A DNA stretch of 64,000 nt, from the NCBI GenBank assembly GCA_947501605.1, contig CANMWZ010000007.1:61921-125920 (forward strand), written 5' to 3'. This stretch comes from Planctomycetota bacterium. Its GTDB lineage: Bacteria; Planctomycetota; UBA1135; UBA2386. Numbering within the stretch: position 1 is the stretch's first letter; every line of letters starts with the position of its first letter. The notes below the pieces were generated by a model. The model ran no database searches. It was not told where the DNA came from and saw only the letters and a program-made list of their open reading frames with translations. The position numbers and the translations under genes are program-made. Below are positions 40,001-53,927 of the stretch, piece by piece.

Positions 40001-43000
40001 TCAACTTGCCGAGCGACGTCGTGCGCGTGCGACCCAGTCGTGCGCGAGCGCGTGCAGATCCACCGAGTCTTGGGTCTGGGTTGCGAAGTAGCCAGCTTCG
40101 ATGCGCTGCATCGCCGCGGCCAGTTCTTGCACCGTGGCGGCATCGAGCTCGCCGCTCGACTGGATCTGGCGCAGCAGGCCGAGCACCGTGAACGGAGTCA
40201 CGTGCTCCGGCACTTCTAGGCCGGCGATCACCGCGGCCGCCGGTCGGCGGCGCATGGCGAAGCCGAGGCCGATCAAGAGCAGCAGCGCCGCAGCTCCGCC
40301 CGCATACCACGGCCAGTTGGAGCGCGGCGCGCCGTACTGCTCCAGCAAGTCGACGACTGGTTCGGCCGCCACAAGATCGGCATCGGCGTAGCGCTGCCGC
40401 AGCATCGTGGTGCCCTCCCGCTTGGCCGTCGGGAACGAGAACTTCGTCGGCCGCGCCGGCAGGTTCGGTTTCGCCGTCAGCGACAGTGTGAACGTCCGTT
40501 CGGCCAGGATCGTGTCGGTCGCACCGTCCGGGTCAAAGCGAGTGACCATCGGCCCCGAGTCATCGACGTTGCTGACGTCAAAGTCGGAAGGCGCAACGTC
40601 GACGAGGTCCGCGAGCTTCGCCGGCAGGCCGTGCGAGGTCGCCTTGATCTCGAGCACGAGCTTCCCCTGCGCGGCCTGCCGCTCGTCGAGGATCTGCGTG
40701 ATCTCGAGCTTGTCCGACGGGCGCGTGGGCCCTTCCGCTGGCGTCGCATCGATTGCCAGTACGGTGGACTCGATCGGCAGCACGGCGTAGCCCGAGGTGT
40801 CGAGGAAGTCGAGGTCGAGGCGCAGCTGCGGAATGCGGTCCACCTGCGGTCCGCGGGGCTTCAGCATCAGGTAGGCGTAGGGCGTCACGCGCCAGCCGTA
40901 CTGCTCGGTTGCGCGCGAGTGCACGCTGTCGTTCTGGAACGTGACCGAGAGCACGTCGAAGTGCTCGCTGAGCATCTGCTTCGCCATCTCCGCGAACTTG
41001 TCGCGGTAGTTCTCGGTCGGGCGGCCGTAGTTGTACGAGTTCGAGATGTCGTTCTGGTTGCGCAGGTATCGACCAAAGCCGCCTGATTCGCGCTCGATGT
41101 CACGCGTGTGCCGGATCTCGACGAACAGGCCGAATGGCTGGCCGTGGCCGACCTCCGTCGGGCCGTCGACGCGCGCAGTGAGCTCGATCTCGCTGGTGAT
41201 GTCTTTGTAGTAGTCGTAGAGCTTCTTCGCCTCGAAGGCCTGCTTGTGGTCGCCCACGACATCGAGGCCGGCCTTCACATAGCGCAGCTTGACGGCCGGG
41301 TTGAGGCTGCTCATGCGCGTGAACAGCAGGTTGGCGAAGCGCGACATGTGGCGCTCGCTGGCGTCGCCCGGCAACGCCTTGATGCGATCTCTGACGGCGT
41401 CGATTTGCGACTGCACGTGGACGTGTTCGTGGCTGATGTTCTGCAGGTCGCTGCTTCCGAGCGCGGCGTAGAACCAGTGCTCGTAGACCTCCGTCGATTC
41501 CTCCTCCTTCGGCAGGTCGGCGACGACCTTGGCGTAGTTGTCAGCGGCGGCGCTGAAGTCCGCGAACGCGGCGAGGCGCTTCTCGGTGAAGGCGACTTCG
41601 TTGCCGATCTCTCGACGGTAGTCGATCTCGTCGTGTTGCAGCGTGGCACGTGCGAGCAGCAACGACCAATCCCCTTCGTGCTGCGCGAGGCCGCCGTCGA
41701 GGACCGCGCGCGCGACCTGGTAGCCGCGATCGACCTCTGCCTCGATGTCCTTCTGTCGGCGGCGCGTCTTGGCTTTCTCTTGCGTTGCTGGCAACCGCCA
41801 CACCGTCGCGAGATTGGCGCGCATTTGCTGCGCCAGCGCGGCCAGGGTGCGCGGCTTGAGTCCGCCGAGAGAACCGAACACCTGCTCGATCGCCTCGATC
41901 CGGTAAACCTCGGCGCTGCTGTGGCAGGTCGTGAAGGCCTGGGCGAGCAGGTCCTCTGCTGGGCCCTTGATCGGCAGCTTCTTCATTTCTGCGATCCAGT
42001 GCGCGAGGTCCTTGATGTTGCGCTGCTGCTTGCTGCGCGTCAGCGGAATGCCCTCAGCGCGCTGCTCGTAGCCATAGAAGTAGTTGTTGCTGCGGCCCGC
42101 GTTCGGATCGTGGTTGCGCGTCCACACCTTCACGAACTCGTCGACCAGTTCCTTGGCTTGCACGGGGTGGGTCTTGGCGAGCTCTTGGATGTACGGAAAG
42201 GCCTGCGCCTCCTCCTGCATCTTCAGCCACAGTTGCGCCGTCATCATCGCGAACTTGGGCTGCATGCCGGCCTCGAGCTGCGCGACCCACTGTGGCGATG
42301 GCCGCAGGTCGAGGACGTCTGCGACCTTGATCGTCTGGCCGTTGGTGCCGGTCGAGTCGTCGTAGTAGAAGAAGTTGCCGAAGCGGTCGCGGCGCATCGA
42401 CGGGTAGTAGCCACTCGACTGGTCGAACTGGTACGCCGAAGTGGCTTCGCGCAGCCAGTTGTCGGCGAGGATCGAGAGTTGCGTGCGCCACTCGGCGGCG
42501 CGCTCCGGCGCCGCGTGCAGCAGCGCGGCGATCGCGGTCTGCTGGAGTTGCAGCGTGAGCTGGCGGAAGTTCGGGTTCTGCGCCTGCGCGATCGCGGCGT
42601 CGGCAGCTGCGACGCCAATCGACGCGATGATGTCCATGCCGCGCTGCACGTCTTTGGTGAAGCTGCCATCGAGCCAGGACTGGCCGAGTTCCTTGCGCAG
42701 GCGCGGCGCGAGCCCGACGGCGGTCTTGAGCGCCGACTCCTTCTGCTTCTGCTCGACATCGTCGACGGCAAACACGTTCTGCAGCGCTTCCCACGCCTGT
42801 TCGAGCAGAACGGCTTTGCCTTCTTCGTCGTGCTTTGCGATCAGGTGCTGAGCCAACAAGTTGAGGCCCTCGAAGTCCTTGGCGGCGGTGGCGTCGACGA
42901 CCGATGGCAAGAACTGTCCGCTCGCGACCTGCTGGCCGGCACCGAACAGCAGTTTCACGACTTCGCGGCGCGACAGCATCGCACCGTCACCGGTGGCGCT

Positions 43001-44008
43001 CGACACGGCGCCGAGTTGTTCGAGCATCGGTTCGAGCAACAGACCCCGCGTCATCACTTGGCCGAGCACGACACCGAGCGGCAGGAACGCCGCGTCCTCG
43101 CGCTTCGTTGGCGCCGCATCGCACATGCCGAGCACGTCGGTGAAGGCGAAGAAGGGCTTGAGGTTGGGGTCCTGCGGTGGCTGGCCCAACGCGTTCAGCA
43201 TGTGCGTGTAGGCGGCCTTCTTCTCGTCGTCGGTCGGCAGGCTGGCGAGGAAGGCCTTCACCTTGCTCCATTCGCCCAGCGTCACGGCGCGGGCCCACTG
43301 CACCAGTTCCTGGTCGAAGGGATCGACGGCGGGAACGGGGGGTGCGATGCCATTGGGCGGCGGTTGACCGCCGGAAGTCGGTTGCTCGGCGGCGAGCGGA
43401 TCGGGTGCGGTTGCGCCATCGGGAGCGATGGCAATCGGTTGTCCTGTGACCGTGGCTGGCCCGGAGCTGAGGCCCGTGAAGACGAACGGGGAACTCGTCG
43501 CCCCGAGAACGATGCTGTTGGTCGGTTCCTTGCTCTCGCTGGCGACGGGGCCGGCGTTCGGGGCGGCCGCCGCAGGCGGAGTCTCGCCGTTGACGACGCC
43601 CTTCTCTGGCGGTGAGGTCCACGTCCGCAGGATCGTCGTCGGGCGACGGTCGAAGGCGACCTGGGTGATCTTCTGCAGGCGCTCCTGCTTCTTCTGATCC
43701 TGCTCCGCCTTCTTCTGTGCTGCTTCTGCGGCAGCCGTGGCTACCGGATCTTGCGGCGAAGTCGGCGTGGCATTCGCTGGCTGGTTTGGTTGGCCGGGCG
43801 GGGCCGCGTTGACGGGCTGCTGCGTTGTGGGTGCTGCCACCCATAGCGGCTGGCCTGCGGCGCTGGTGGTCCTGGCCGCTCGCAGGGGCATCGCTCCCGC
43901 ACCCGGTGGTGGCGGTGGCGGTTGGATCTGCGCCATGGCCGTAGCCGCGAGCGCGCTGACGAGAAGGGAACGGAGCAGAACGATCGAGGGGAATACCGGC
44001 TTCGTCAT
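40001..44008 (-). CDS. Large secreted/membrane-anchored protein with helical repeats, BatD-like C-terminal region and TM
   Basis: Signal peptide (...AMAQ), Pro/Gln-rich N-terminus, long helical core, beta-rich region, TM WYAGGAAALLLLIGLGFAMRRR, short tail. Confidence 0.8.
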   Translation of the reverse strand: MTKPVFPSIVLLRSLLVSALAATAMAQIQPPPPPPGAGAMPLRAARTTSAAGQPLWVAAPTTQQPVNAAPPGQPNQPANATPTSPQDPVATAAAEAAQKKAEQDQKKQERLQKITQVAFDRRPTTILRTWTSPPEKGVVNGETPPAAAAPNAGPVASESKEPTNSIVLGATSSPFVFTGLSSGPATVTGQPIAIAPDGATAPDPLAAEQPTSGGQPPPNGIAPPVPAVDPFDQELVQWARAVTLGEWSKVKAFLASLPTDDEKKAAYTHMLNALGQPPQDPNLKPFFAFTDVLGMCDAAPTKREDAAFLPLGVVLGQVMTRGLLLEPMLEQLGAVSSATGDGAMLSRREVVKLLFGAGQQVASGQFLPSVVDATAAKDFEGLNLLAQHLIAKHDEEGKAVLLEQAWEALQNVFAVDDVEQKQKESALKTAVGLAPRLRKELGQSWLDGSFTKDVQRGMDIIASIGVAAADAAIAQAQNPNFRQLTLQLQQTAIAALLHAAPERAAEWRTQLSILADNWLREATSAYQFDQSSGYYPSMRRDRFGNFFYYDDSTGTNGQTIKVADVLDLRPSPQWVAQLEAGMQPKFAMMTAQLWLKMQEEAQAFPYIQELAKTHPVQAKELVDEFVKVWTRNHDPNAGRSNNYFYGYEQRAEGIPLTRSKQQRNIKDLAHWIAEMKKLPIKGPAEDLLAQAFTTCHSSAEVYRIEAIEQVFGSLGGLKPRTLAALAQQMRANLATVWRLPATQEKAKTRRRQKDIEAEVDRGYQVARAVLDGGLAQHEGDWSLLLARATLQHDEIDYRREIGNEVAFTEKRLAAFADFSAAADNYAKVVADLPKEEESTEVYEHWFYAALGSSDLQNISHEHVHVQSQIDAVRDRIKALPGDASERHMSRFANLLFTRMSSLNPAVKLRYVKAGLDVVGDHKQAFEAKKLYDYYKDITSEIELTARVDGPTEVGHGQPFGLFVEIRHTRDIERESGGFGRYLRNQNDISNSYNYGRPTENYRDKFAEMAKQMLSEHFDVLSVTFQNDSVHSRATEQYGWRVTPYAYLMLKPRGPQVDRIPQLRLDLDFLDTSGYAVLPIESTVLAIDATPAEGPTRPSDKLEITQILDERQAAQGKLVLEIKATSHGLPAKLADLVDVAPSDFDVSNVDDSGPMVTRFDPDGATDTILAERTFTLSLTAKPNLPARPTKFSFPTAKREGTTMLRQRYADADLVAAEPVVDLLEQYGAPRSNWPWYAGGAAALLLLIGLGFAMRRRPAAAVIAGLEVPEHVTPFTVLGLLRQIQSSGELDAATVQELAAAMQRIEAGYFATQTQDSVDLHALAHDWVARARRRSAS

Positions 44009-44149
44009 CGCGGAGTGTCCATGCTGCCCGCCCGGGTGCAGGCGGCGCGATGCCGGCCCCTCGGGACGCGCTTTTGTGTCGTGGTTCGCGCAGCTTCGAT
44101 TGGAGCGGCGGGGTTCGCCACGGCGGCGCTAGGGTCGCCGTGCGATCCG

Positions 44150-44175
44150 GCGATGCTGCAGGGTGGCAGCATCGC
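44150..44175. repeat. Perfect 10-bp inverted repeat (hairpin) downstream of the extended ORF
   Basis: GCGATGCTGC-agggtg-GCAGCATCGC. A second hairpin CACGGCGGC/GTCGCCGTG lies at 44119-44142. Confidence 0.55.
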
Positions 44176-44217
44176 AGTGGGACCGAGGAGCGGCTGGGAG
44201 CTCCTGAGTGGTGGGTT

Positions 44218-44934
44218 TCAGGACCCGGCGCCGTCGATCGGTGGACCGGAGCTCGCACCGCGAGCGTCCTGTGGCTTCTGACCTTGCTTTGCCTTGTTCT
44301 TGCCTTTCGAGCCGCGACCGCGGCCCTGTCCACAGCCCTCTCATTGAGAGGGTAATGGCAACCCTTGCAAGTCTTCGAGCTCGAGGCGTTCGAGCCGGAT
44401 CGCGGCTTCGAGGTCTTCGCGCGTGTCATCCTGCGCCTTGGCATCGCCACTGCCCTCAGCCGCCTCGGCGAGCAGGCGGTAGTTCTGGCGCGCGGCCTCG
44501 ATCTGCGGTTCCCATTCGGCGCGCGTCTTGCCTTCGAGGCGCAACAGCCACGTCATGTAGAACTGCGAGTTCGCCAGCGCGCGGCGGCTCTCTGCACGCA
44601 GTTCGGGGCTGGTCGCCGGATCGCGATCGAACTCTTCGACCAGCGACTGCAGATCGCGCGCGGCGGTCGGCAGTTCGTTGGCATTCATCTGGGCCTTCGC
44701 ACGTTCGAGTCGCAAGTGGCGGGCTTCCCCGACGCGGTCGCCCGGCAGCTTGCCGATCGCTTCGCCATAGCTCTTCACGGCATCGGCCCAGTCCGAATCC
44801 GCGGCGGCGGATTCCGCGCTCGCCACGAGGCGAGCCACTTCGTCGAGCACGAGCCGGTCCTGGCCCGGCCCGTAGTGGTAGGCGACGCCGGCAACGGGCA
44901 ACGCCAACCATGAGAGCAGCAAGAAGGTACGCAT
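44218..44934 (-). CDS. Exported helical (TPR-like) protein; candidate selenoprotein with UxxC (238 aa if UGA at 44341-44343 is read through, otherwise 197 aa ending at 44341)
   Basis: GGGGAGAGG RBS and N-terminal hydrophobic segment. ...LPLPSQ-TGA-EGC... then 40 open codons to TGA at 44218-44220. SECIS-like hairpin downstream of the UGA. Confidence 0.65.
44309..44326 (-). promoter_or_regulatory. Candidate bacterial SECIS element
   Basis: GGGCCGC-GGUC-GCGGCUC, a 7-bp stem with one G-U pair. Stem starts 14 nt and loop 21 nt after the in-frame UGA. Confidence 0.55.
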
Positions 44935-45062
44935 CGAAAACCTCTCCCCGCGGAAATGGAGTGCCGCGGATGGCGGCGGATCCTACCAGTTGTTCGGTCG
45001 CGAGGGCGGTTCGTGAACAGGGAACTGTGCACCGATCCCGTCTGGAGACGGTCGGTTCGGGT

Positions 45063-45749
45063 TCAGCCGCCGAATCGAGTCCAATACGCGTCGGCGCCGA
45101 GCTCGCGCAGCTGCGGTTCGCGGCCGTAGCCGTAGAGGCAGGCGATCGTACGCAGCCCGGCCGCGCGGCCGGCGTGCAGATCGGCTTCGCCATCGCCAAC
45201 CATGGTGCCGGGCCCCGAAACGTGCGTGGGCGCGGTCCGCCCGTCGCTCGAGTCCGGCAATGGGCAACCCAACTGGCGCAAGGCGAAGAACAGGGGCGCG
45301 GGGTCGGGCTTTTTCTGCGGCAGCGTGTCGCCGCCGACCACGACAGGCAGCAGCTCGGCGAGGCCGAGGTGGCGGACGACGACCACGGCGAAGCGTTCTG
45401 GCTTGTTGGTGACGACTGCCATTCTGTGACCGCGCTCGGCAAGCGCCGTCAGGTAGGTGCGCACACCAGGGTAAAGCCGCGCGGTCTCGGTGCACTGGAG
45501 GTCGTGGTGGGCGACGTAGATCTTCAGCAGGTCGTGCCAGCGCAGATCCTCGTCGCCGTAGCCGAGTTCGGGCAACGCGCGGCGCAGTAGGGTCGAAGCG
45601 CCGCGGCCGATGCAGTTGCGCACGCCCTCTAGCGGCAGCGGCACCAAGCCGCAGGCGGTGCGAACGTGGTTGGTGCTGGCGGCGATATCGCCAATCGTGT
45701 CGGCAAGGGTGCCGTCGAGATCGAACAGGAACGGCGGCGGGTGCGGCAC
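45063..45749 (-). CDS. gph: HAD-superfamily phosphatase (phosphoglycolate phosphatase-like)
   Basis: FDLDGTLADT, VVTNK, KKPDP and MVGDG.ADL motifs. AAGGAG RBS before the GTG start. Confidence 0.85.
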   Translation of the reverse strand: MPHPPPFLFDLDGTLADTIGDIAASTNHVRTACGLVPLPLEGVRNCIGRGASTLLRRALPELGYGDEDLRWHDLLKIYVAHHDLQCTETARLYPGVRTYLTALAERGHRMAVVTNKPERFAVVVVRHLGLAELLPVVVGGDTLPQKKPDPAPLFFALRQLGCPLPDSSDGRTAPTHVSGPGTMVGDGEADLHAGRAAGLRTIACLYGYGREPQLRELGADAYWTRFGG

Positions 45750-45774
45750 CCGCTCCTTATACTGTGCCGCTGTG

Positions 45775-46272
45775 ATGACGCCGCAGCATGTCGTGCTCCT
45801 GGTCTTGTGCCTCTCACTCGCGGCGTGCAGCACGGCCTACGAGTGGCAGGAGTTTCGCAGCGGACCGACGACGCAGGCGGATGTCTACGATGCCATCGAC
45901 ACGTTGGCGCGAGCCGACGGCTTTGGCCCCAGCACCGAGTCCGATCGCGGTCTCGCGGTCTGGGTGTCGCGCTGGCGCGTGCAGCAGTTGGGACTCGGTC
46001 GGCCTGGCCGCCTGCGGCTCCGGGCCGAAATCCTTCTCGACGAGAGCAGTGCCGAGACCGGGTTCACCATCCGCTACTACTTCGAGCGGCAGAAAGTGAA
46101 GGAACTGAAGCACGCGCAGAACCCCCAGGAAGACGATTGGTCCGATGACGGCCAGGATCAGGAGCGCGAGTTCCTGTTCGGGGAGAAGCTCAAGCGTCGT
46201 TTGCCGGCGGTGAAGGTCGAGTCTGAGAGCGAGCCGGACAAGAGCCTGCCGACGTACCGGAGCGGGCGTTGA
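45775..46272 (+). CDS. Hypothetical lipoprotein
   Basis: Lipobox LAAC after a hydrophobic stretch. TATACT -10 hexamer just upstream. Confidence 0.72.
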   Translation: MTPQHVVLLVLCLSLAACSTAYEWQEFRSGPTTQADVYDAIDTLARADGFGPSTESDRGLAVWVSRWRVQQLGLGRPGRLRLRAEILLDESSAETGFTIRYYFERQKVKELKHAQNPQEDDWSDDGQDQEREFLFGEKLKRRLPAVKVESESEPDKSLPTYRSGR

Positions 46273-46473: not shown

Positions 46474-47709
46474 ATGAAGCCCGAGTTGTCGGTCCTCATC
46501 GTCAACTACAACACCTGGCGCGACTGTGCCCACGCAGTGCAGTCCTTGCGCCGAAACCCGCCAAGACGCCGCGACGGTAGCGCGATGCCGTTCGAGGTCC
46601 TGGTCGTCGACAACAAATCGCCGCGCCGCAGCCAGGAGGAGATCGAACTGGTGCAGCATGCGCTCGCCGACGTTGCGCGCGACCAAGGCGATCCCCAGTC
46701 CGGTCAGTTGATCCTGCACGATGACAACGCGGGCTACAGCAAGGGCGTCAACCTGTGCTATCGCCGGAGTCGCGGGCAGTGGATCCTGGTCAGCAATCCG
46801 GACCTGCTCTTCCCAGTCGGCTGCATCGACAACCTGTTGCGCTACATGGAGACCCACCCCGAATGCGGCTGCGCCGTGCCCAAGGGTTTCTGGGACGAGG
46901 AACTGAAGGGCAAGCTGCCGCCGAACACGCTCCCGACGATGTTCGACTTGCTGGTGGGCTCGGTCGCGGAGTTCTGCCGCCCGTTGCGCCGCGCCTATGG
47001 CAAGCGTCTCGTGCGCTCGTGGCTCCGCATTTGGCAGGCGGACGAGCCGGTCGTGCTGAGGATGATGTCGGGCTGCCTGTTCCTGGTCGATCGCGACTAC
47101 TTTGCCTCGATCGGCCTGATGGACGAGCGCTACCCGCTCTATTACGAGGACGCCGATCTGTCGCGGATGATCGCGAAGTCGGGCAAGCAACTCGTACAAG
47201 TGCCGAACGCGCACCTCGTGCACTTCGTGAACCGCTCGGGGCAGACCGACTTCACGACCATGATGACGCGGCACGACATCAGTCGCGACTTGTACTTCCA
47301 CAAGTGGTACGGCAGCTTGGGGCGATGGGTGCACGCCAAGATCAACACCCTGTTGCGCTCACCGGCGGGCCAGAAGCGCGTTCGCATTCCGCCGGATTCG
47401 CCGTTCGTCGACCTCGGGGCCTCGGCAGAGCCGCCGAGGCTTCAGTTTCGCGCTTGCGAGAAGTACCTGTTGCTCGTGTCCCTTGACTCGCGCTTCCACT
47501 TGAGCGGCGGTCTGATCGGCAGCGGCGACCATTGGACGCCGAGCGCTGCCGTCTACGCCAACTTCAGTCCGACGCTGTACTGGTGTCGCGTCTACGACAT
47601 CAGCGGCGGCAGGCTCGAGCAACTCGGCACGTGGCGGTACGAGTGCCGCCGTGGCTGCGAGCCGTCGCCCGTGCCGAGTGCGGTCGCCAAGACTGCCGCG
47701 ACCACCTAG
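46474..47709 (+). CDS. Glycosyltransferase family 2 with C-terminal extension
   Basis: GGGAGG RBS; LSVLIVNYN, VVDN, NPD and MDERYPLYYEDADL motifs. Confidence 0.9.
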   Translation: MKPELSVLIVNYNTWRDCAHAVQSLRRNPPRRRDGSAMPFEVLVVDNKSPRRSQEEIELVQHALADVARDQGDPQSGQLILHDDNAGYSKGVNLCYRRSRGQWILVSNPDLLFPVGCIDNLLRYMETHPECGCAVPKGFWDEELKGKLPPNTLPTMFDLLVGSVAEFCRPLRRAYGKRLVRSWLRIWQADEPVVLRMMSGCLFLVDRDYFASIGLMDERYPLYYEDADLSRMIAKSGKQLVQVPNAHLVHFVNRSGQTDFTTMMTRHDISRDLYFHKWYGSLGRWVHAKINTLLRSPAGQKRVRIPPDSPFVDLGASAEPPRLQFRACEKYLLLVSLDSRFHLSGGLIGSGDHWTPSAAVYANFSPTLYWCRVYDISGGRLEQLGTWRYECRRGCEPSPVPSAVAKTAATT

Positions 47710-47716
47710 CTCCACC

Positions 47717-48637
47717 ATGGCGCCAGTATTGTCAGTCGTGGTGCTGAGTTGGAACACACGAGCATTGACGCTCGCGTGTCTTGGCGCGTTGTTCGCTGAG
47801 ACCCCGCGTCATGCGCGCGAGGTCATTGTCGTCGACAACGGTAGCCACGATGGCTCAGCGGATGCGATCGCCGCGGCCTTCCCGCAGGTCGTGTTGATCC
47901 GCAACGCCGACAACCGTCTCTATTCGGCGGGCAACAACCAGGGCGCGCGAGCGGGGTCCGGTGAGTTTGTCTGCACGCTCAACTCGGACACCGAAGTGCG
48001 GCCCGGTGCGCTCGACACGCTGGTCGAGTTCTTGCGAGCGAACAGCGACTACGGCGCCGCCGCGCCGATGCTGGTCGACCCCGATGGATCGGTGCAGCGC
48101 GCGTGTCAGCGCTTTCCCACGATCCTGTCGGCGCTCTGCTTCGATTCGTGGTGGGGCAAGTGGTGGCCGGGTTCGTGGGTCCAGCGCCGCTACCTGATGT
48201 TGGACTTCGATCACGTCGCCTCGCGCGACGTGCCGCAACCGCCAGGCGCGTGCTTTTGCATGCGTCGCGAGGAGTACCTGAGCTTTGGCGGACTCGACGA
48301 AGTCTTGTCGCTGTACTACAACGACGTCGACCTCAGCAAGCGACTCTGGCGCGCGGGGCGCAAGGTTCGCTATCTGACTACCGCGGTCGTGATGCACCAT
48401 CGCGGCGCCAGCACCAAGAGCTTCGCCAAGATGCTGGTGCTCTGGCACAAGAACCGCATCGCCTACTACCAGAAGCACTACGGTGCCTTCGGCGGGGTTT
48501 GGATCCACTTCGTGATTCGGCTGCGCATTGCCGAGGAGTGGCTCGCGATCGGTCGTCGCTGCAAGGGCGATCCGGCGCGGCTAGCAGCCGAACGCGCGTT
48601 CTTGCGGCAGGCGCAAAAGGAACTGTGGGCGTCGTGA
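47717..48637 (+). CDS. Glycosyltransferase family 2 (WbbL/rhamnosyltransferase-like)
   Basis: VVDNGSHDGS, LNSD and GGLDE..LYYNDVD motifs. Confidence 0.9.
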   Translation: MAPVLSVVVLSWNTRALTLACLGALFAETPRHAREVIVVDNGSHDGSADAIAAAFPQVVLIRNADNRLYSAGNNQGARAGSGEFVCTLNSDTEVRPGALDTLVEFLRANSDYGAAAPMLVDPDGSVQRACQRFPTILSALCFDSWWGKWWPGSWVQRRYLMLDFDHVASRDVPQPPGACFCMRREEYLSFGGLDEVLSLYYNDVDLSKRLWRAGRKVRYLTTAVVMHHRGASTKSFAKMLVLWHKNRIAYYQKHYGAFGGVWIHFVIRLRIAEEWLAIGRRCKGDPARLAAERAFLRQAQKELWAS

Positions 48638-49860
48638 AGGTCGCGCTGCTGAGTTCGAACTTCCCGCCTGAGATCCATGCCGGCACGGAAATGGTGGTGG
48701 TGGCACTCGGCCACGCGCTGCAGCGACTCGGTATCGAGCCGGTCGTGATCACCTCCAGCGAGAAGGTCCACTCCGGTTCCGATCTGCAGCGCGAAGTGTA
48801 TGAAGGCATGGACGTCGTGCGGGTGTGGAAGCACCTTGACGAATGGGACCAGCATCGGCTGGATCGACCGCGGCTCACTTCAATCGTCGAACGCGTGCTC
48901 GCTGACGAACGACCTGACGTGTTGCACGTGCACTCGTTCTCGCAGCTCGGGGCAGGAATCACACAGAGTGCGCGCCGGCACAGCATCGGCACCGTGATGA
49001 CGTTTCACGACGTTTGGGTGACGTGCCCGCGCTTCTTCCGCGTGCCGCCTCCCGGGCACGGTATCGAGTGCCCGCGTGGGGCCGAGCGCGAGGTCTGCGT
49101 ACGCTGCTGCAACCTCGAACTGCATCATCCGGACCTTGCACTCGTCCGGCGCGCCGTTCATGGCCGCGATGCCAGCGTGCGCCGCGAAGTCGAAGCTGCG
49201 CAAGAACTGACCGCGCCGACCCAGACGGCCGCACGGATGGTCCAAGAGAACCTGCCGTGTCCGCGGCCCATCGCAGTAGTCCCGCACGGCCTGCTGCGCC
49301 CGTTGCCCGCTACGGAGCGAGCCTTGGCTTTGCAGCCCGGCGAGCGCTTGCGAATCGGCACCTACGGCAACCTCGTCGAGCCCAAGGGCGTACTCGAACT
49401 GGTGGCGGCCGCCGCTGGTCTCGATTGTGAACTGCATCTGGCCGGCGCTTTCCTCGATCCAGGCTTCGAGCGGACCGTGCGTGGCCTCTGCGTGCAGTTG
49501 GGTGTCGATCTGCACTATCACGGGGCCTACAGCCCGGCCATGCCGCATCCGGCGCTCCGGCTGCACCTCGCGGTGTTTCCCTCGAAGTGTCAGGAGACCT
49601 ACGGCCTCGTGGTCGATGAGGCGCTGGCGCGCGGTGTGCCCGCCGTCGTCTCCGACCAGGGTGCGTTGGTCGAACGCGGTGCGCACGGCGGAGTCGTCGT
49701 GAGTTCGCTTCCGAACCTCCGGCTTACCCTGCACGATGTCGGCCGCAGTCCCGAACGGCTCGCCGCGCTGCGTTCGTCGGTGCCCGCCGACCTCGGTTCG
49801 ATCGACGGCGCGGCGCAGCGCTACGTCGAGCTGTACGAGAAGGCGCGATCGGCCCGATGA
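48634..49860 (+). CDS. Glycosyltransferase family 4
   Basis: GTG start with GTGA overlap; FPPE..AGTE, PDVLHVH and PSKCQETYGLVVDEA motifs. Confidence 0.88.
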   Translation: MKVALLSSNFPPEIHAGTEMVVVALGHALQRLGIEPVVITSSEKVHSGSDLQREVYEGMDVVRVWKHLDEWDQHRLDRPRLTSIVERVLADERPDVLHVHSFSQLGAGITQSARRHSIGTVMTFHDVWVTCPRFFRVPPPGHGIECPRGAEREVCVRCCNLELHHPDLALVRRAVHGRDASVRREVEAAQELTAPTQTAARMVQENLPCPRPIAVVPHGLLRPLPATERALALQPGERLRIGTYGNLVEPKGVLELVAAAAGLDCELHLAGAFLDPGFERTVRGLCVQLGVDLHYHGAYSPAMPHPALRLHLAVFPSKCQETYGLVVDEALARGVPAVVSDQGALVERGAHGGVVVSSLPNLRLTLHDVGRSPERLAALRSSVPADLGSIDGAAQRYVELYEKARSAR

Positions 49861-50591
49861 ACCACCTCTTCTGTCCACTGCTCGACAAGAACAGGCTGCG
49901 CCAACCGGTGTTGGTGCTGGCCGCGCATCCCGACGACGAGGTCATCGGCGCCGGAGCCATGCTTGCGCACCATGCCGCAGCGGGGCACGAGGTGACCGTG
50001 GTGCACATGACCGACGGCGCGCAAGGCGATCCAGACGGTGCGACCAACGACATCGTCGCGACGCGGCGAGCCGAAGGCCGCGAAGCACTGCGGCGCCTCG
50101 GCCTCGACGAGCCCGTGCGCTGGAACCTACCCGACGGCGGCCTGCCCGAGGTGCTACCCGAAATCGAGCGTCGCACGCGCGACCTGTTTCTGCGGATCCA
50201 GCCAAAGACGCTCTACTCCTTTTGGTTCGGCGAGGCCCATCGCGATCATCGGGCTGTTGCGGTTGCGGCGATGCGGGCGGCTTCGGCTCTGCCGGCTGAC
50301 TGCCGTTGCCTGCTGTTCGGCGTCAACTACTTCCCCGCGGCGAGTGCACTGTTCGATACCTCTTCGCTGTGGCCCAAGAAGCGTCACGCGCTCGAGGCCT
50401 ATGCGAGCCAGATCGTCTACTTCGACATCCCTGGCCTCGGTGACCATCGCGATCGGACGGCAACCATCAACGTCAACGTTGCCGGTGTGACGCACGCCGA
50501 GATGTTCACCGACCTCCGACCCGATCAACTCGCTCGTGCCCACGACCTCTGGGCCCCACTGCACCGCATGCTGCTCGAAGGCGGATCATGA
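49857..50591 (+). CDS. PIG-L/LmbE family N-acetylsugar deacetylase
   Basis: AHPDDE, RRAE and HRDH motifs. Confidence 0.9.
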   Translation: MNHLFCPLLDKNRLRQPVLVLAAHPDDEVIGAGAMLAHHAAAGHEVTVVHMTDGAQGDPDGATNDIVATRRAEGREALRRLGLDEPVRWNLPDGGLPEVLPEIERRTRDLFLRIQPKTLYSFWFGEAHRDHRAVAVAAMRAASALPADCRCLLFGVNYFPAASALFDTSSLWPKKRHALEAYASQIVYFDIPGLGDHRDRTATINVNVAGVTHAEMFTDLRPDQLARAHDLWAPLHRMLLEGGS

Positions 50592-51511
50592 AGAAGCCGA
50601 CCGTTTCCCTGGTGATTTCGGTCTGGAACCGGAAGCACGACCTTCGCGACAACTTGCGGGCGATCGCGGCGCAGACGGTGCCTGCCGACGAGGTCATCGT
50701 CGTCGACAACTGCAGCCGGGACGGCACGCCGGAGATGGTGCGCGCCGAGTTCCCGTTCGTGAAACTGATCTGCATGCCGCACTCTGCCTATGGCGCCTGC
50801 GAGACGTTCAACGTCGGTTTCGCCAGCGCCGCCGGCGAGTTCGTCGGCATCCTCGACGACGATGTCGTGCTCGGCGCCCGCTTCGTCGAAGACATGATGG
50901 CGAAGTTCGCGACCGAGCCAGCAACGACCGCAATTCTCTCGCCCAAGGTGCTCGAACCGGAGATGCCAGAGTGGTACGCGGACTCGCCGGCGGTCAACAC
51001 CGAGCGCTACCTTGCGACCTTCCGCGGTTGCGGTTCGATGGCGCGCCACGCGGCCATTCGCAAGGCGGGCTACTACGACATCCGCTTCTTCATCTTCGGC
51101 AATGAGCGCGATCTCACGACCCGGTTGCTGAACCTCGGCTACCGGGCCAAGACGGTGCCGAGTATCGAGGTCTTCCACAAGGCGCCGTTCGGCATGCGCC
51201 ACGGCAAGCGGAGCCTCTATTTCCATGTCCGCAACTTCTGGCTCTACGCCTTCAAGTACGCGCCTTGGTCGATGGTCTTGGGGTTCCCCTTCGCGTTCGT
51301 CCTGGGCAAACTCGGCAGCAAGAAGAAGGGCAAGGGCGGCGAGGTCGCCGACGCGATCGGCACCATCGGTCTGTTCGAGAACATTCGGGCGGTGAAATGG
51401 GGCTTCTGGATCTGCATCAAGGCCTCGCTCGCGTCGTTGTGGCATCTACCGTACTGCCTGAAGCACCGGCAGGTCTGTCGGCACGAGGACTTCGAGTTGC
51501 CGCTGAAGTGA
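50588..51511 (+). CDS. Glycosyltransferase family 2
   Basis: VIVVDNCSRDGT, LDDD and FFIFGNERDL motifs. Confidence 0.9.
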   Translation: MKKPTVSLVISVWNRKHDLRDNLRAIAAQTVPADEVIVVDNCSRDGTPEMVRAEFPFVKLICMPHSAYGACETFNVGFASAAGEFVGILDDDVVLGARFVEDMMAKFATEPATTAILSPKVLEPEMPEWYADSPAVNTERYLATFRGCGSMARHAAIRKAGYYDIRFFIFGNERDLTTRLLNLGYRAKTVPSIEVFHKAPFGMRHGKRSLYFHVRNFWLYAFKYAPWSMVLGFPFAFVLGKLGSKKKGKGGEVADAIGTIGLFENIRAVKWGFWICIKASLASLWHLPYCLKHRQVCRHEDFELPLK

Positions 51512-51878
51512 CGCGGCCCGACCGGGGTGCGTGTGCGCCACTCGGTCGGCGCGGCCCTTGGTCGCGACTCGTGCGAAAAATGTTGTGCGACTTTCGCGCG
51601 CGTCGCATCACGGCGTGCACCCGCCGAACGCAGACAGTGTGCGGCCTTGGTCCGCCTTTCGCCGTTTGTTTGGGGCTGTCGAACACGGTCGCTACGCACA
51701 GTTCCGAGCGCGACTCACGAGCTTTCCCATCGTGTTTGTGCGTCACTTCTACATGGCGAGACGGTCGCTGCCGGCTCGCCGTGGTTACTCCGAAGTCCGG
51801 TGCTTCAAACGCGTGCAAAGGTTCCAACCGAGCGCGCCAGAGAGGCCCGGTGGATGGAGACAAGAGATGTGCAAGGGA

Positions 51879-51917
51879 GGGTGATCGCCTTACGGGAGGC
51901 GATCACCCGTTTCTCTC
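51879..51917 (+). terminator. Intrinsic terminator-like hairpin
   Basis: Perfect 12-bp stem GGGTGATCGCCT-tacggg-AGGCGATCACCC followed by GTTTCTCTC. Confidence 0.7.
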
Positions 51918-51958
51918 GGGTGGAGACCGAGACCGCGCGGCGTAGGATCCCCGCCCCC

Positions 51959-53020
51959 GTGATCTCCGCGATCGTCGTCAACTGGAATGGCAAGGACTAC
52001 CTAGCCGCGTGCCTGCAGGCGCTGTTGGGTCAGCAGCCGCCCCCCGACGAACTGATCGTGGTGGACAACCACAGCGACGACGGCTCGCGCGAATACGTCA
52101 GCGAGCGGTTCCCGTCCGTGCGCATCATCGACAGCGGCAGCAACGATGGCCCTTGCCGAGCGCGCAACCTCGGGGTCGCGGAAGCGAAGTACGACCTGTG
52201 CCTGCTGGTCGACAACGATGTCGTGCTGCAAACCGGTGCGCTGCGTGCACTCCGCGCGGCGATCGACATCGACGCGCGTACCGCGATGGTGCAGGCCCGC
52301 TCGCTTTGCTCCGACGAGCCTGACCGCGTGCATTACGACTCGGCCGACCTGCACTTCCTCGGCACACTGGTCTTGCACAACTGGTATCGCAAACTGGAAG
52401 AGGCGCCATGGCCCGCAGGCCCCGTCGGCGCTGCGATTGCCTTGTGCGTGCTCGTTCGGCGCCGGCCGTACCTTGACGTTGGCGGCTTCGACCAGAACCT
52501 CTTCATCCTCTACGAGGACAACCAGCTGAGCTACAAGCTGCGCATGCGCGGTCACCTCGTGCGACTCGCCGAAGGAGCGCTTTGCCTGCACCGTGGCGGC
52601 ACAGCCGGCTTGTCGGTCCGAGGGAGCAGCAGTGCTTCGTACTCTGGGCGGCGGACGTTCTTGCACAGTCGCAATCGCTGGTACGTGCTGCTGACCTGCA
52701 TGCGCTGGCGCACCCTGTTGCTGACCTTGCCGGTTCAGCTGCTGTATGGCGCCGTCTACGCCGGTTTCGGCCACGCGCGCGGCCATGTGCGCGACTGGTG
52801 GGCCGGCAAGCTAGAGCTCGTCCGCCTCGTGCCGGTGGCATTGCGGGCGCGCAAGTTGGTGCAGCGTGGGCGAACAGTGCCCGACCGCGAACTGCTGGTC
52901 GCAGCGCCGTTGACACTGAATCCAGGTCTTGCGGAGACCGGCGGCAAGGGGCTGCTGCGGCGCTCGCTCGACGGCACGTTCTCGGTGTGGTGGACCTGCG
53001 TGCGGAGGTTGTGTGGCTGA
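51959..53020 (+). CDS. Glycosyltransferase family 2
   Basis: ISAIVVNWNG, VVDNHSDDGS, DND and LFILYED motifs. TAGGAT -10 hexamer upstream. Confidence 0.88.
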   Translation: MISAIVVNWNGKDYLAACLQALLGQQPPPDELIVVDNHSDDGSREYVSERFPSVRIIDSGSNDGPCRARNLGVAEAKYDLCLLVDNDVVLQTGALRALRAAIDIDARTAMVQARSLCSDEPDRVHYDSADLHFLGTLVLHNWYRKLEEAPWPAGPVGAAIALCVLVRRRPYLDVGGFDQNLFILYEDNQLSYKLRMRGHLVRLAEGALCLHRGGTAGLSVRGSSSASYSGRRTFLHSRNRWYVLLTCMRWRTLLLTLPVQLLYGAVYAGFGHARGHVRDWWAGKLELVRLVPVALRARKLVQRGRTVPDRELLVAAPLTLNPGLAETGGKGLLRRSLDGTFSVWWTCVRRLCG

Positions 53021-53927
53021 CATCGCAGCGCTACTGCTCAACTGGCGGCAACCGGAGCTCACGGTCCAGTGTCTCCGCGACTTGGTCGCTGCGGCGGTAC
53101 CAGGTCTACGCATCGCGGTCATCGACAACGGTTCGAGCGATGGCTCGGTCGAGGCACTCGAGCCGGCAGTCGCATCGGCCAACAGAGCCGGCGTGCCGAC
53201 GCAGTTGCTCGTGCTGCAGCAGAACCTCGGGTTTACCGGCGGAATGAATGTCGGGTTCGAATGGAGCAAGCAGCAGCGGTGCGAGTTCGCGTTGGTGCTC
53301 AACAACGACTTGAGATTGCAGCCCGGGTTTCTCGAGCCTTTGGTGGCGACGCTGCAGAACGACGTGCGTGTTGCCGCCGTCACTCCGACGGTCCTCTACC
53401 CCGATGGGACGGTGTGGGCGCAGGGCGGCAGCCTTGGGTTCTGTCCGAATGCGCTGCGCTTGCGCGGCAACGGTGACCGACCAGCGCCGGTCGACAGCGG
53501 GCCGGAGTCGATTGACTTCGCGCCGGGCGCTTGCGTGCTGTTTCGGCTGGCGGAAGTGCTTCTGGTCGGTGGCTTCGACGAGCGCTACTTCATGTACTGG
53601 GAAGACGTGGACCTCAGTCTGCGCCTCAAGGCACGCGGCGGGCGAGTCGTCTGGTTGCCGTGGGTTCGCGTCACGCATCTCGGCGGGGCCTCAGCCGGCG
53701 GTGGGCGGTCGCCGCTGCGCAAGTACCTGATGGCGAAGAACAGCCTCCGCTTCTTGAAGACACACGGCTCCCTCAAGCAGTGGATTGCACTCCTGTTGCT
53801 CGACGTGATGTCGCTACCAGTGCTGCTGGTGTTGCGGCCACGTGCGTTCGTCGCGAAGGCCAGCGGTCTGCTCGCCGGGTTCGTCGGCTCCTCGTCGACG
53901 GCGAGCGACGTCACGCGCTGGGCGTAG
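53013..53927 (+). CDS. Glycosyltransferase family 2
   Basis: GGAGG RBS; IDNGSSDGS, NLGFTGG.N, LNND and FDERYFMYWEDVD motifs. Confidence 0.9.
   Translation: MADIAALLLNWRQPELTVQCLRDLVAAAVPGLRIAVIDNGSSDGSVEALEPAVASANRAGVPTQLLVLQQNLGFTGGMNVGFEWSKQQRCEFALVLNNDLRLQPGFLEPLVATLQNDVRVAAVTPTVLYPDGTVWAQGGSLGFCPNALRLRGNGDRPAPVDSGPESIDFAPGACVLFRLAEVLLVGGFDERYFMYWEDVDLSLRLKARGGRVVWLPWVRVTHLGGASAGGGRSPLRKYLMAKNSLRFLKTHGSLKQWIALLLLDVMSLPVLLVLRPRAFVAKASGLLAGFVGSSSTASDVTRWA

Follow-up and report, generated by a model that had tools for sequence, protein, structure and literature searches.

A probable uncatalogued selenoprotein family with selenocysteine in the disordered tail of a TPR-like protein of MoxR/VWA operons

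The window analyzed here, the whole 64,000-nt stretch of contig CANMWZ010000007.1 from a Planctomycetota bacterium, carries on its reverse strand a gene whose product would be the TPR-like (tetratricopeptide repeat-like) subunit of a MoxR/VWA operon. The gene runs for 197 codons up to LPLPSQ and then reads TGA (44343-44341) followed by GAG GGC TGT (E-G-C). The frame stays open for 40 codons after this TGA, to a terminal TGA at 44220-44218, which gives 238 aa in total; this reading, made in a preliminary description of the DNA, is borne out by the sequence. From comparison with homologs, we conclude that UGA 44343 is almost certainly recoded as selenocysteine (Sec), in which case SelB and tRNA-Sec would decode it under the guidance of a hairpin with a GGUC loop. 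The gene belongs to a selenoprotein family that has not been catalogued; its layout is unusual and its operon informative, and we infer its function.

Recoding of the in-frame UGA

The TGA is genuine and not an assembly error, since the contigs of four of four public runs (four studies) cover it without a variant; one of these runs shares a sample that is flagged as possibly the origin of this DNA. Homologs were matched in 49 of 401 genomes of the phylum (three marginal, one the source genome itself), and further searches gave 48 loci and 1,625 proteins. Ninety-three loci were anchored (L098 and L115 have no anchor, and L115 stops short of the tail), and 88 distinct loci were left once five rows had been removed (three were duplicates, and two formed a duplicated pair that a contig end truncates). 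At the column of U198, 66 of these are Sec forms with TGA, 21 have Cys and one has Val. The Sec forms comprise 58 with TGA at the U198 column, three of them with a second TGA, and eight with Cys and then TGA one column on; family f51 (L099, L100, L102, L104, L105, L107-L109) is a divergent clade with C-U one column later. Neither TAA nor TAG stands at this column in any of the 93 rows, hence in none of the 88 distinct loci, and the terminal stop in the same rows is TGA in 55, TAA in 18, TAG in 18 and open in two. A later set from 61 near relatives gave 22 loci, 20 with TGA and two with TGC, at least four of which repeat earlier loci.

The tail 3' of the TGA is under coding selection, because entropy is low at codon positions 1 and 2 and high after the true stop: over the final 16 codons, the 66 Sec forms have 0.78, 0.72 and 1.65 bits at the three positions, against 1.93, 1.91 and 1.91 bits beyond the true stop. 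Among protein records alone, a Cys form of 251 aa (P0052) is identical over 211 aa to one that ends at the column (P0292), and its tail matches that of the TGA locus L029. The Cys or TGA column and the conserved tail are what the preliminary description had expected; homologs that end in TAA or TAG with an unconserved tail, its case against recoding, were looked for and did not appear.

The preliminary description had also placed a hairpin, GGGCCGC-GGUC-GCGGCUC, at 44326-44309 with its loop 21 nt past the UGA, which we confirmed. With a 4-nt loop, a 7-bp stem, G at the first loop position, a 21-nt spacing and an energy of -13.4 kcal/mol, it agrees on four of four points with the consensus of the bacterial selenocysteine insertion sequence (SECIS) given in PMC13188914, section 5. 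An Rfam search gave nothing at gathering level. Taken alone, the hairpin is within chance and the comparative data carry the case for recoding, because shuffled sequences fold as well (z = -0.56, -0.95 and -0.63 in 64-, 44- and 101-nt windows) and such a hairpin stands behind 49 of the 89,594 TGA triplets in the source genome (66% GC). All 66 Sec forms have CGGUCG or CGGUUCG 18-39 nt past the first UGA, and 60 of them have an unbroken stem of at least 4 bp (five of the others are bulged and one has 3 bp; in family f51 the loops are GGUUC-type and the stems often bulged). A stem of at least 4 bp with a GGUC-type loop occurs in 0 of 22 non-Sec forms, and in the later set a stem of at least 5 bp is present in 20 of 20 TGA loci and 0 of 2 TGC loci. 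A SECIS search and covariation analysis had been proposed at the outset, and the stem does covary: among the 55 loci whose only Sec is at column 0 (50 distinct rows), pairing holds in 89% of cells, six of seven pairs vary on both sides, and the score was matched neither by 500 shuffles (0/500) nor by slid registers, although the loop-motif alignment and kinship flatter this test.

Five loci (L041, L047/L140, L079, L130 and L132) contain two Sec codons, as UxxU, Ux3U or Ux5U. In all five, the loop lies 18-21 nt past the second UGA and 27-39 nt past the first; in two of them the first UGA is 39 nt from the loop, outside the 16-37 consensus, and L041 has a second possible hairpin closer to the first UGA. 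If both codons are recoded, a single in-frame SECIS would act on two UGAs in these variants, over a distance of up to 39 nt in the case of the first.

The preliminary description had pointed to selA, selB, selC and selD as the genes to look for in the genome. All four were found in the source genome (91% complete), with tRNA-Sec (selC) at 79 bits and an in-frame TGA in selD itself, and the absence that was to count against Sec insertion is not seen. Co-occurrence was assessed in 80 genomes, with 10 loci left out for size. Among the 58 genomes with a TGA form, 55 have selA and the other three have selB and tRNA-Sec, so that none lacks both selA and selB. The non-TGA tail occurs in 21 genomes, 12 of which have selA and selB, while the other nine are without selB, tRNA-Sec and full-strength selA (for six of the nine, the listed completeness is 97-100%); the one other genome carries a tail-less homolog. 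Two points weigh against relying on this pattern: selA is present in 289 of the 401 phylum genomes, and a tree-corrected test of independent pairs had three pairs on well-supported branches and no power. The co-occurrence points in the right direction but is not decisive alone, because the selA background is high and kin are not independent. A quick tree requires 10 changes between Sec and non-Sec, three of them forced by starred branches; repeated Sec origins are not established, since a single clade of Sec forms is compatible with the data (approximately unbiased test, p-AU 0.23).

These data bear on the alternative in which the tail and hairpin are incidental and the UGA either terminates translation or, by leak or under an altered code, specifies Trp, Cys or Gly. 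The 197-aa database form and the insignificance of the hairpin alone would fit such a reading, but the coding selection on the tail, the lack of TAA and TAG at the column, the confinement of the hairpin to TGA forms and the want of any TGA form in a genome that lacks both selA and selB all oppose it. In addition, TGA ends the gene in 55 of 93 rows and is thus a working stop. We consider this alternative very improbable.

Several observations were made alongside. Scans of the genome for motif plus hairpin returned 49 and 109 candidates, hardly any of which lie in a coding frame; the two candidates on C66 and C85 looked paralog-like at first and are presumably antisense to a transposase, judged by a motif. 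The hairpin filter picked out no further Sec gene, either at the six MoxR loci of the source genome or on the + strand of L051-L114. An exported TlpA/ResA-like thioredoxin-fold protein with W-U-G-P-C (L118, G000:C1:343289-344377, - strand), a known kind of selenoprotein, has the identical C-GGUC-G hairpin type 30 nt past its UGA. The formate dehydrogenase alpha match (G000:C28:29508-31550) has no in-frame stop and is therefore a non-selenoprotein despite the Sec machinery. The Sec trait is common in the phylum by its selA count, and the selenoproteome of the phylum seems little surveyed.

A TPR-like scaffold with a variable Sec/Cys tail

The AlphaFold2 model (111 sequences) contains a helix at residues 2-20, a TPR-like stack at residues 24-191 with a predicted local distance difference test (pLDDT) score mostly above 90, and an unstructured tail with block means of 47-63. 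The first helix has conserved W9, P13 and H20, followed by G22-Q25, and is moderately hydrophobic (best 19-residue mean 1.44); a net positive charge precedes it in 70 of 72 scored loci and an A-x-A end is present in 35 of 72. Judged by sequence, the protein is likely exported. Residues W129, G135, W141, R149, Q150 and L189 are invariant in the TPR-like domain. Pfam TPR models match some members weakly, and Foldseek and sequence searches of solved structures gave generic TPR or solenoid matches alone (the best VIA match, to a Pins/LGN TPR, has Z 16.2 and a root-mean-square deviation of 2.9 over 142 aligned residues, with many near ties). The model thus supports the earlier picture of a 238-aa exported or membrane-anchored helical protein with Sec near a basic disordered tail.

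Across members, Sec is placed at columns 0, +1, +3, +4 and +6, in the motifs UxxC, CU, UxxU, Ux3U, Ux5U and lone U, and Gly at position -2 is invariant (66/66 Sec forms). Exactly two chalcogens are present in 64 of the 66 Sec forms and the partner Cys is absent in the other two, whereas the Cys forms have three to five. Of 270 database proteins, 179 possess a tail, 61 stop at the column or close to it, and 30 were missed by a crude anchor; 150 of the 179 tails hold 2-6 Cys within their first 22 residues, in at least 40 spacings. The C-terminal motif is retained even in Cys-free homologs.

The U-x-x-C motif named in the preliminary description is present in our gene, but its reading as a classical redox motif did not hold, as the model has no oxidoreductase fold, the partner Cys is not invariant and Sec occupies several positions. 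The all-helical model does not show a thioredoxin fold in which a helix begins at the motif; the motif lies instead at the edge of the disordered tail. No member (0/111) has a thioredoxin-type Pfam match, and neither a fixed motif spacing nor an invariant resolving Cys was found across Sec forms. Going by the model, the protein is not a thioredoxin-type UxxC enzyme, because the position and number of Sec vary and Sec stands in a disordered tail behind a TPR domain.

Table 1. Features of the gene and its partner in the window, with positions from the first letter of the window
Feature	Position	Strand	Basis or remark
Gene of the probable selenoprotein, full form, 238 aa	44218..44934	-	ATG at 44934; database form of 197 aa ends at the UGA
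Ribosome-binding-site-like GGAGAGG, 6 nt 5' of ATG	44941..44947	-	read from sequence
Residues 1-20, predicted hydrophobic helix: signal anchor or cleaved signal peptide	44875..44934	-	model, conservation
Residues 24-191, predicted TPR-like all-helical domain	44362..44865	-	model, conservation
UGA, almost certainly read as Sec (U198)	44341..44343	-	homolog column, tail, hairpin comparison
Cys201, second chalcogen of U-x-x-C	44332..44334	-	sequence, homolog comparison
Putative bacterial SECIS, 7-bp stem, GGUC loop 21 nt 3' of UGA; also encodes GRGRG of the tail	44309..44326	-	fold, homolog comparison
Predicted disordered 40-residue Gly/Lys/Arg-rich tail, ending in a conserved DARGA..GPPPDG.GS-type motif	44221..44340	-	model, conservation
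Conserved partner gene, 1,335 aa, BatD slot	40001..44008	-	neighborhood conservation, predicted structure

A contig from an RNA library runs across 43717-44949 without a difference, which indicates presence in the RNA library and is not proof of transcription. RNA contigs become sparse upstream of ~44950-45070, which hints at a start weakly at best, and a scan for sigma-70 promoters and terminators gave no match.

Operon context and possible function

In relatives, the gene order is moxR (AAA_3), DUF58, membrane protein, VWA, VWA, the selenoprotein-family gene and a gene for a ~1,300-aa protein. Among the loci L051-L114 with sufficient flank, the large gene lies downstream in 54 of 55, and upstream there is VWA in 47 of 53, DUF58 in 35 of 49 and moxR in 32 of 49; in several of these loci inserted genes shift moxR out of range. 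The model of the partner protein consists of a helical solenoid, two beta-rich domains, a membrane helix and a small C-terminal helical domain, and the protein has only two Cys. BatD (PF13584) matched none of 37 partner proteins when these were searched whole, although beta-rich domains and a membrane helix are present in the model. A complex prediction for the Cys-form pair of L058 (partner-fragment residues 270-1030) scored 0.00, which is evidence neither way.

The arrangement resembles the Bat operon (moxR-DUF58-DUF4381-batA-batB-batC-batD; Bacteroides aerotolerance) in gene order, in the slot of our gene and in the combination of TPR with a low-complexity tail, and the first VWA protein scores best on the BatA model (E = 3e-16), but far below the cut-off. 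It differs in that the BatD model found no match in the 37 partner proteins searched whole, the BatC model (NF047507) matches 1 of 111 members weakly (E = 0.0018) without reaching the family cut-off, and the tail is basic and rich in Cys/Sec rather than acidic. The canonical Bat operon of the source genome has the same order, with DUF4381, an acidic-tailed TPR protein and BatD. The likeness to BatC is, on sequence grounds, one of slot and architecture and not of membership, because our family has no homology to the canonical BatC-slot protein.

From these data we propose a chain of steps. After decoding of the UGA, the N-terminal helix is predicted, with high probability, to export or anchor the protein, so that the TPR scaffold and the floppy 40-residue tail would be periplasmic; a Bat-type VWA domain is reported as exposed to the periplasm (PMC5700661). 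From gene order, the protein probably fills the BatC slot as TPR subunit of an envelope machine composed of MoxR AAA+, DUF58 and two VWA proteins, where its working partner would be the large membrane protein whose gene is adjacent. Given all this, the tail could be a flexible arm whose Sec and Cys, at its start, act as soft-metal ligands; as the MoxR/VWA motor remodels a client, the arm would hold a metal ion or cluster or pass it on. We regard this step as evenly poised. The chain as a whole, in which the protein would be the flexible metal-ligand arm of a MoxR/VWA maturation machine, is put forward tentatively. We favor a metal arm because the spacing, number and position of Cys/Sec vary as in ligand clusters, because there is neither an oxidoreductase fold nor a reductase neighbor, and because characterized MoxR/VWA systems are described as driving metal insertion (PMC13036017; PMC12276312 for MxaRSACKL).

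As the main rival, the same selenoprotein and operon could instead present the tail as a mobile redox arm (U-x-x-C, C-U, U-x-x-U) that cycles between selenenylsulfide and reduced forms and keeps clients or the periplasm reduced, as was first proposed for the Bacteroides Bat operon. Such a design recalls animal thioredoxin reductase, which has a flexible C-terminal Sec arm, and the two chalcogens of nearly all Sec forms are what a redox pair requires. Most selenoproteins are redox proteins (PMC13188914, section 7), and reductants partly rescued the Bacteroides bat mutant, as retold in PMC3557215; according to the same paper, however, bat deletions in Leptospira biflexa left oxidant tolerance unchanged. 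The model without an oxidoreductase fold, the variable spacing, the two Sec forms that lack a partner Cys, the surplus Cys of the Cys forms, which a two-center redox site does not need, and the want of a conserved reductase gene nearby also speak against the redox arm, which we judge rather unlikely. Still less probable is that Sec is an accessory, either a selenium- or oxidation-sensitive switch of the 197-aa:238-aa ratio or a covalent staple to a partner, and that the conserved tail end is the real functional part, a docking peptide. The motif kept in Cys-free homologs and the invariant Gly at -2 are consistent with this, as are the two Cys of the partner protein and the fact that termination at the UGA would leave an intact TPR domain minus the motif. 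Cys forms in genomes with full Sec machinery (12 of 21) have no such switch, and selection on chemistry is suggested by the five double-Sec loci and by the repeated placement of Sec where other members have Cys.

Several observations weigh against the metal-ligand arm and its operon. The periplasm is oxidizing, and periplasmic Cys clusters are often disulfides and not ligands. The chalcogens appear to be dispensable in some lineages, because 27 of the 179 tailed database proteins have a Cys-free tail (by the crude anchor) and L050 has Val at the Sec column. No conserved client gene was seen within ~5 kb. The moxR, DUF58 and two VWA genes expected upstream of the TPR gene are found in relatives and are split over two contigs in the source genome, with the gene pair on C7 and the cognate moxR block on C5:132135-136635. 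Finally, the lack of homology to the canonical BatC-slot protein of the source genome has to be counted here.

Other features of the neighborhoods were noted. The source genome has six MoxR paralogs, at G000:C4:1-8400 (L117), C5, C12, C13, C17 and C20, one of them in the canonical Bat operon, with a BatD-TPR-SH3 fusion. In several Verrucomicrobiota loci, an MMPL-family transporter gene lies between the second VWA and the family gene (L057:2672-4963, with similar open reading frames in L060, L062, L064, L067 and L095). A HAD-family phosphatase gene (45063-45833, - strand) is directly upstream of the gene pair, a link kept in the closest relatives alone (cluster 24 in L051 and L052), and beyond it a run of open reading frames (46474-53927, + strand) is glycosyltransferase-like by eye.

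Relation to known families

In keeping with the preliminary description, which did not recognize a classical selenoprotein family, no NCBIfam release 20 or Pfam model matches at its cut-off, and the family is not recognizable among the 119 selenoprotein families of a 2026 catalogue (PMC13188914, Table 1), whose names include no TPR protein and no member of a MoxR operon. The sole catalogue-type match is that of 1 of 111 members to a ResA-like WAxxUGC model (E = 0.0029). A literature search, with subscription journals mostly outside it, found no description of the family, and the accessible texts of deep-Sep (PMC12013277), BSepDB (PMC13326102) and the Haft and Gwadz preprint, supplements excluded, do not mention TPR or planctomycetes. 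One planctomycete candidate, entered as 'hypothetical' in the selenoprotein list of Table S9 of PMC4807772 and with a Cys homolog in Rhodopirellula, might belong to the present family.

The family shares with other SelB/SECIS-dependent bacterial selenoproteins the in-frame UGA, Cys homologs, consensus hairpin and machinery in the genome, and differs from them in that its Sec stands in a disordered tail. The metal-binding selenoproteins SaoB, SaoC, SaoL and MbdU likewise have Sec at several Cys positions, CU and double-Sec forms, and database entries that end early at UGA, but their folds and neighborhoods are unrelated and no model matched; the SAO system is known from anaerobes (bioRxiv 2022.07.06.499078). 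MxaRSACKL, which inserts Ca2+ into methanol dehydrogenase, and NorQD, which inserts Fe into NO reductase, also combine a MoxR ATPase, VWA proteins and accessory subunits; unlike them, the present operon has no client gene beside it, and Sec use is not reported in the accessible texts on those systems. No MxaK-named model appeared among the Pfam and NCBIfam matches of the family, and no MxaK sequence was compared.

The bacterial selenoproteome would gain a widespread family whose TGA forms are stored truncated in databases, and it is unusual for Sec to be carried by the disordered arm of a repeat scaffold. With less assurance than for the chain of steps above, the family may represent an undescribed class in which a TPR scaffold has a disordered arm akin to metallothionein, and the Sec on this arm carries metal for a MoxR/VWA assembly machine that faces the periplasm in Planctomycetota and Verrucomicrobiota. 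Bat-type MoxR/VWA operons have so far had no assigned chemistry, and redox and metal-loading roles are disputed; if the proposal is true, they gain a first chemical group and a testable job. The Sec/Cys arm offers a precise residue for mutation.

Homologs with record titles are from Planctomycetota and Verrucomicrobiota; a homolog is present in 21 of 36 genomes of the taxonomic family of the source organism and in ~45 of 400 genomes sampled across the phylum. One genome (G383) has two Cys-form copies (L110 and L111), one of them outside the operon, and another (G356) has the distant tail-less homolog L115; Sec machinery was not seen in either genome. At L087, several operon genes are frameshifted, possibly through assembly errors. 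By record title, cultured hosts of Cys forms include Tundrisphaera sp. TA3, Aeoliella straminimaris and Tautonia plasticadhaerens.
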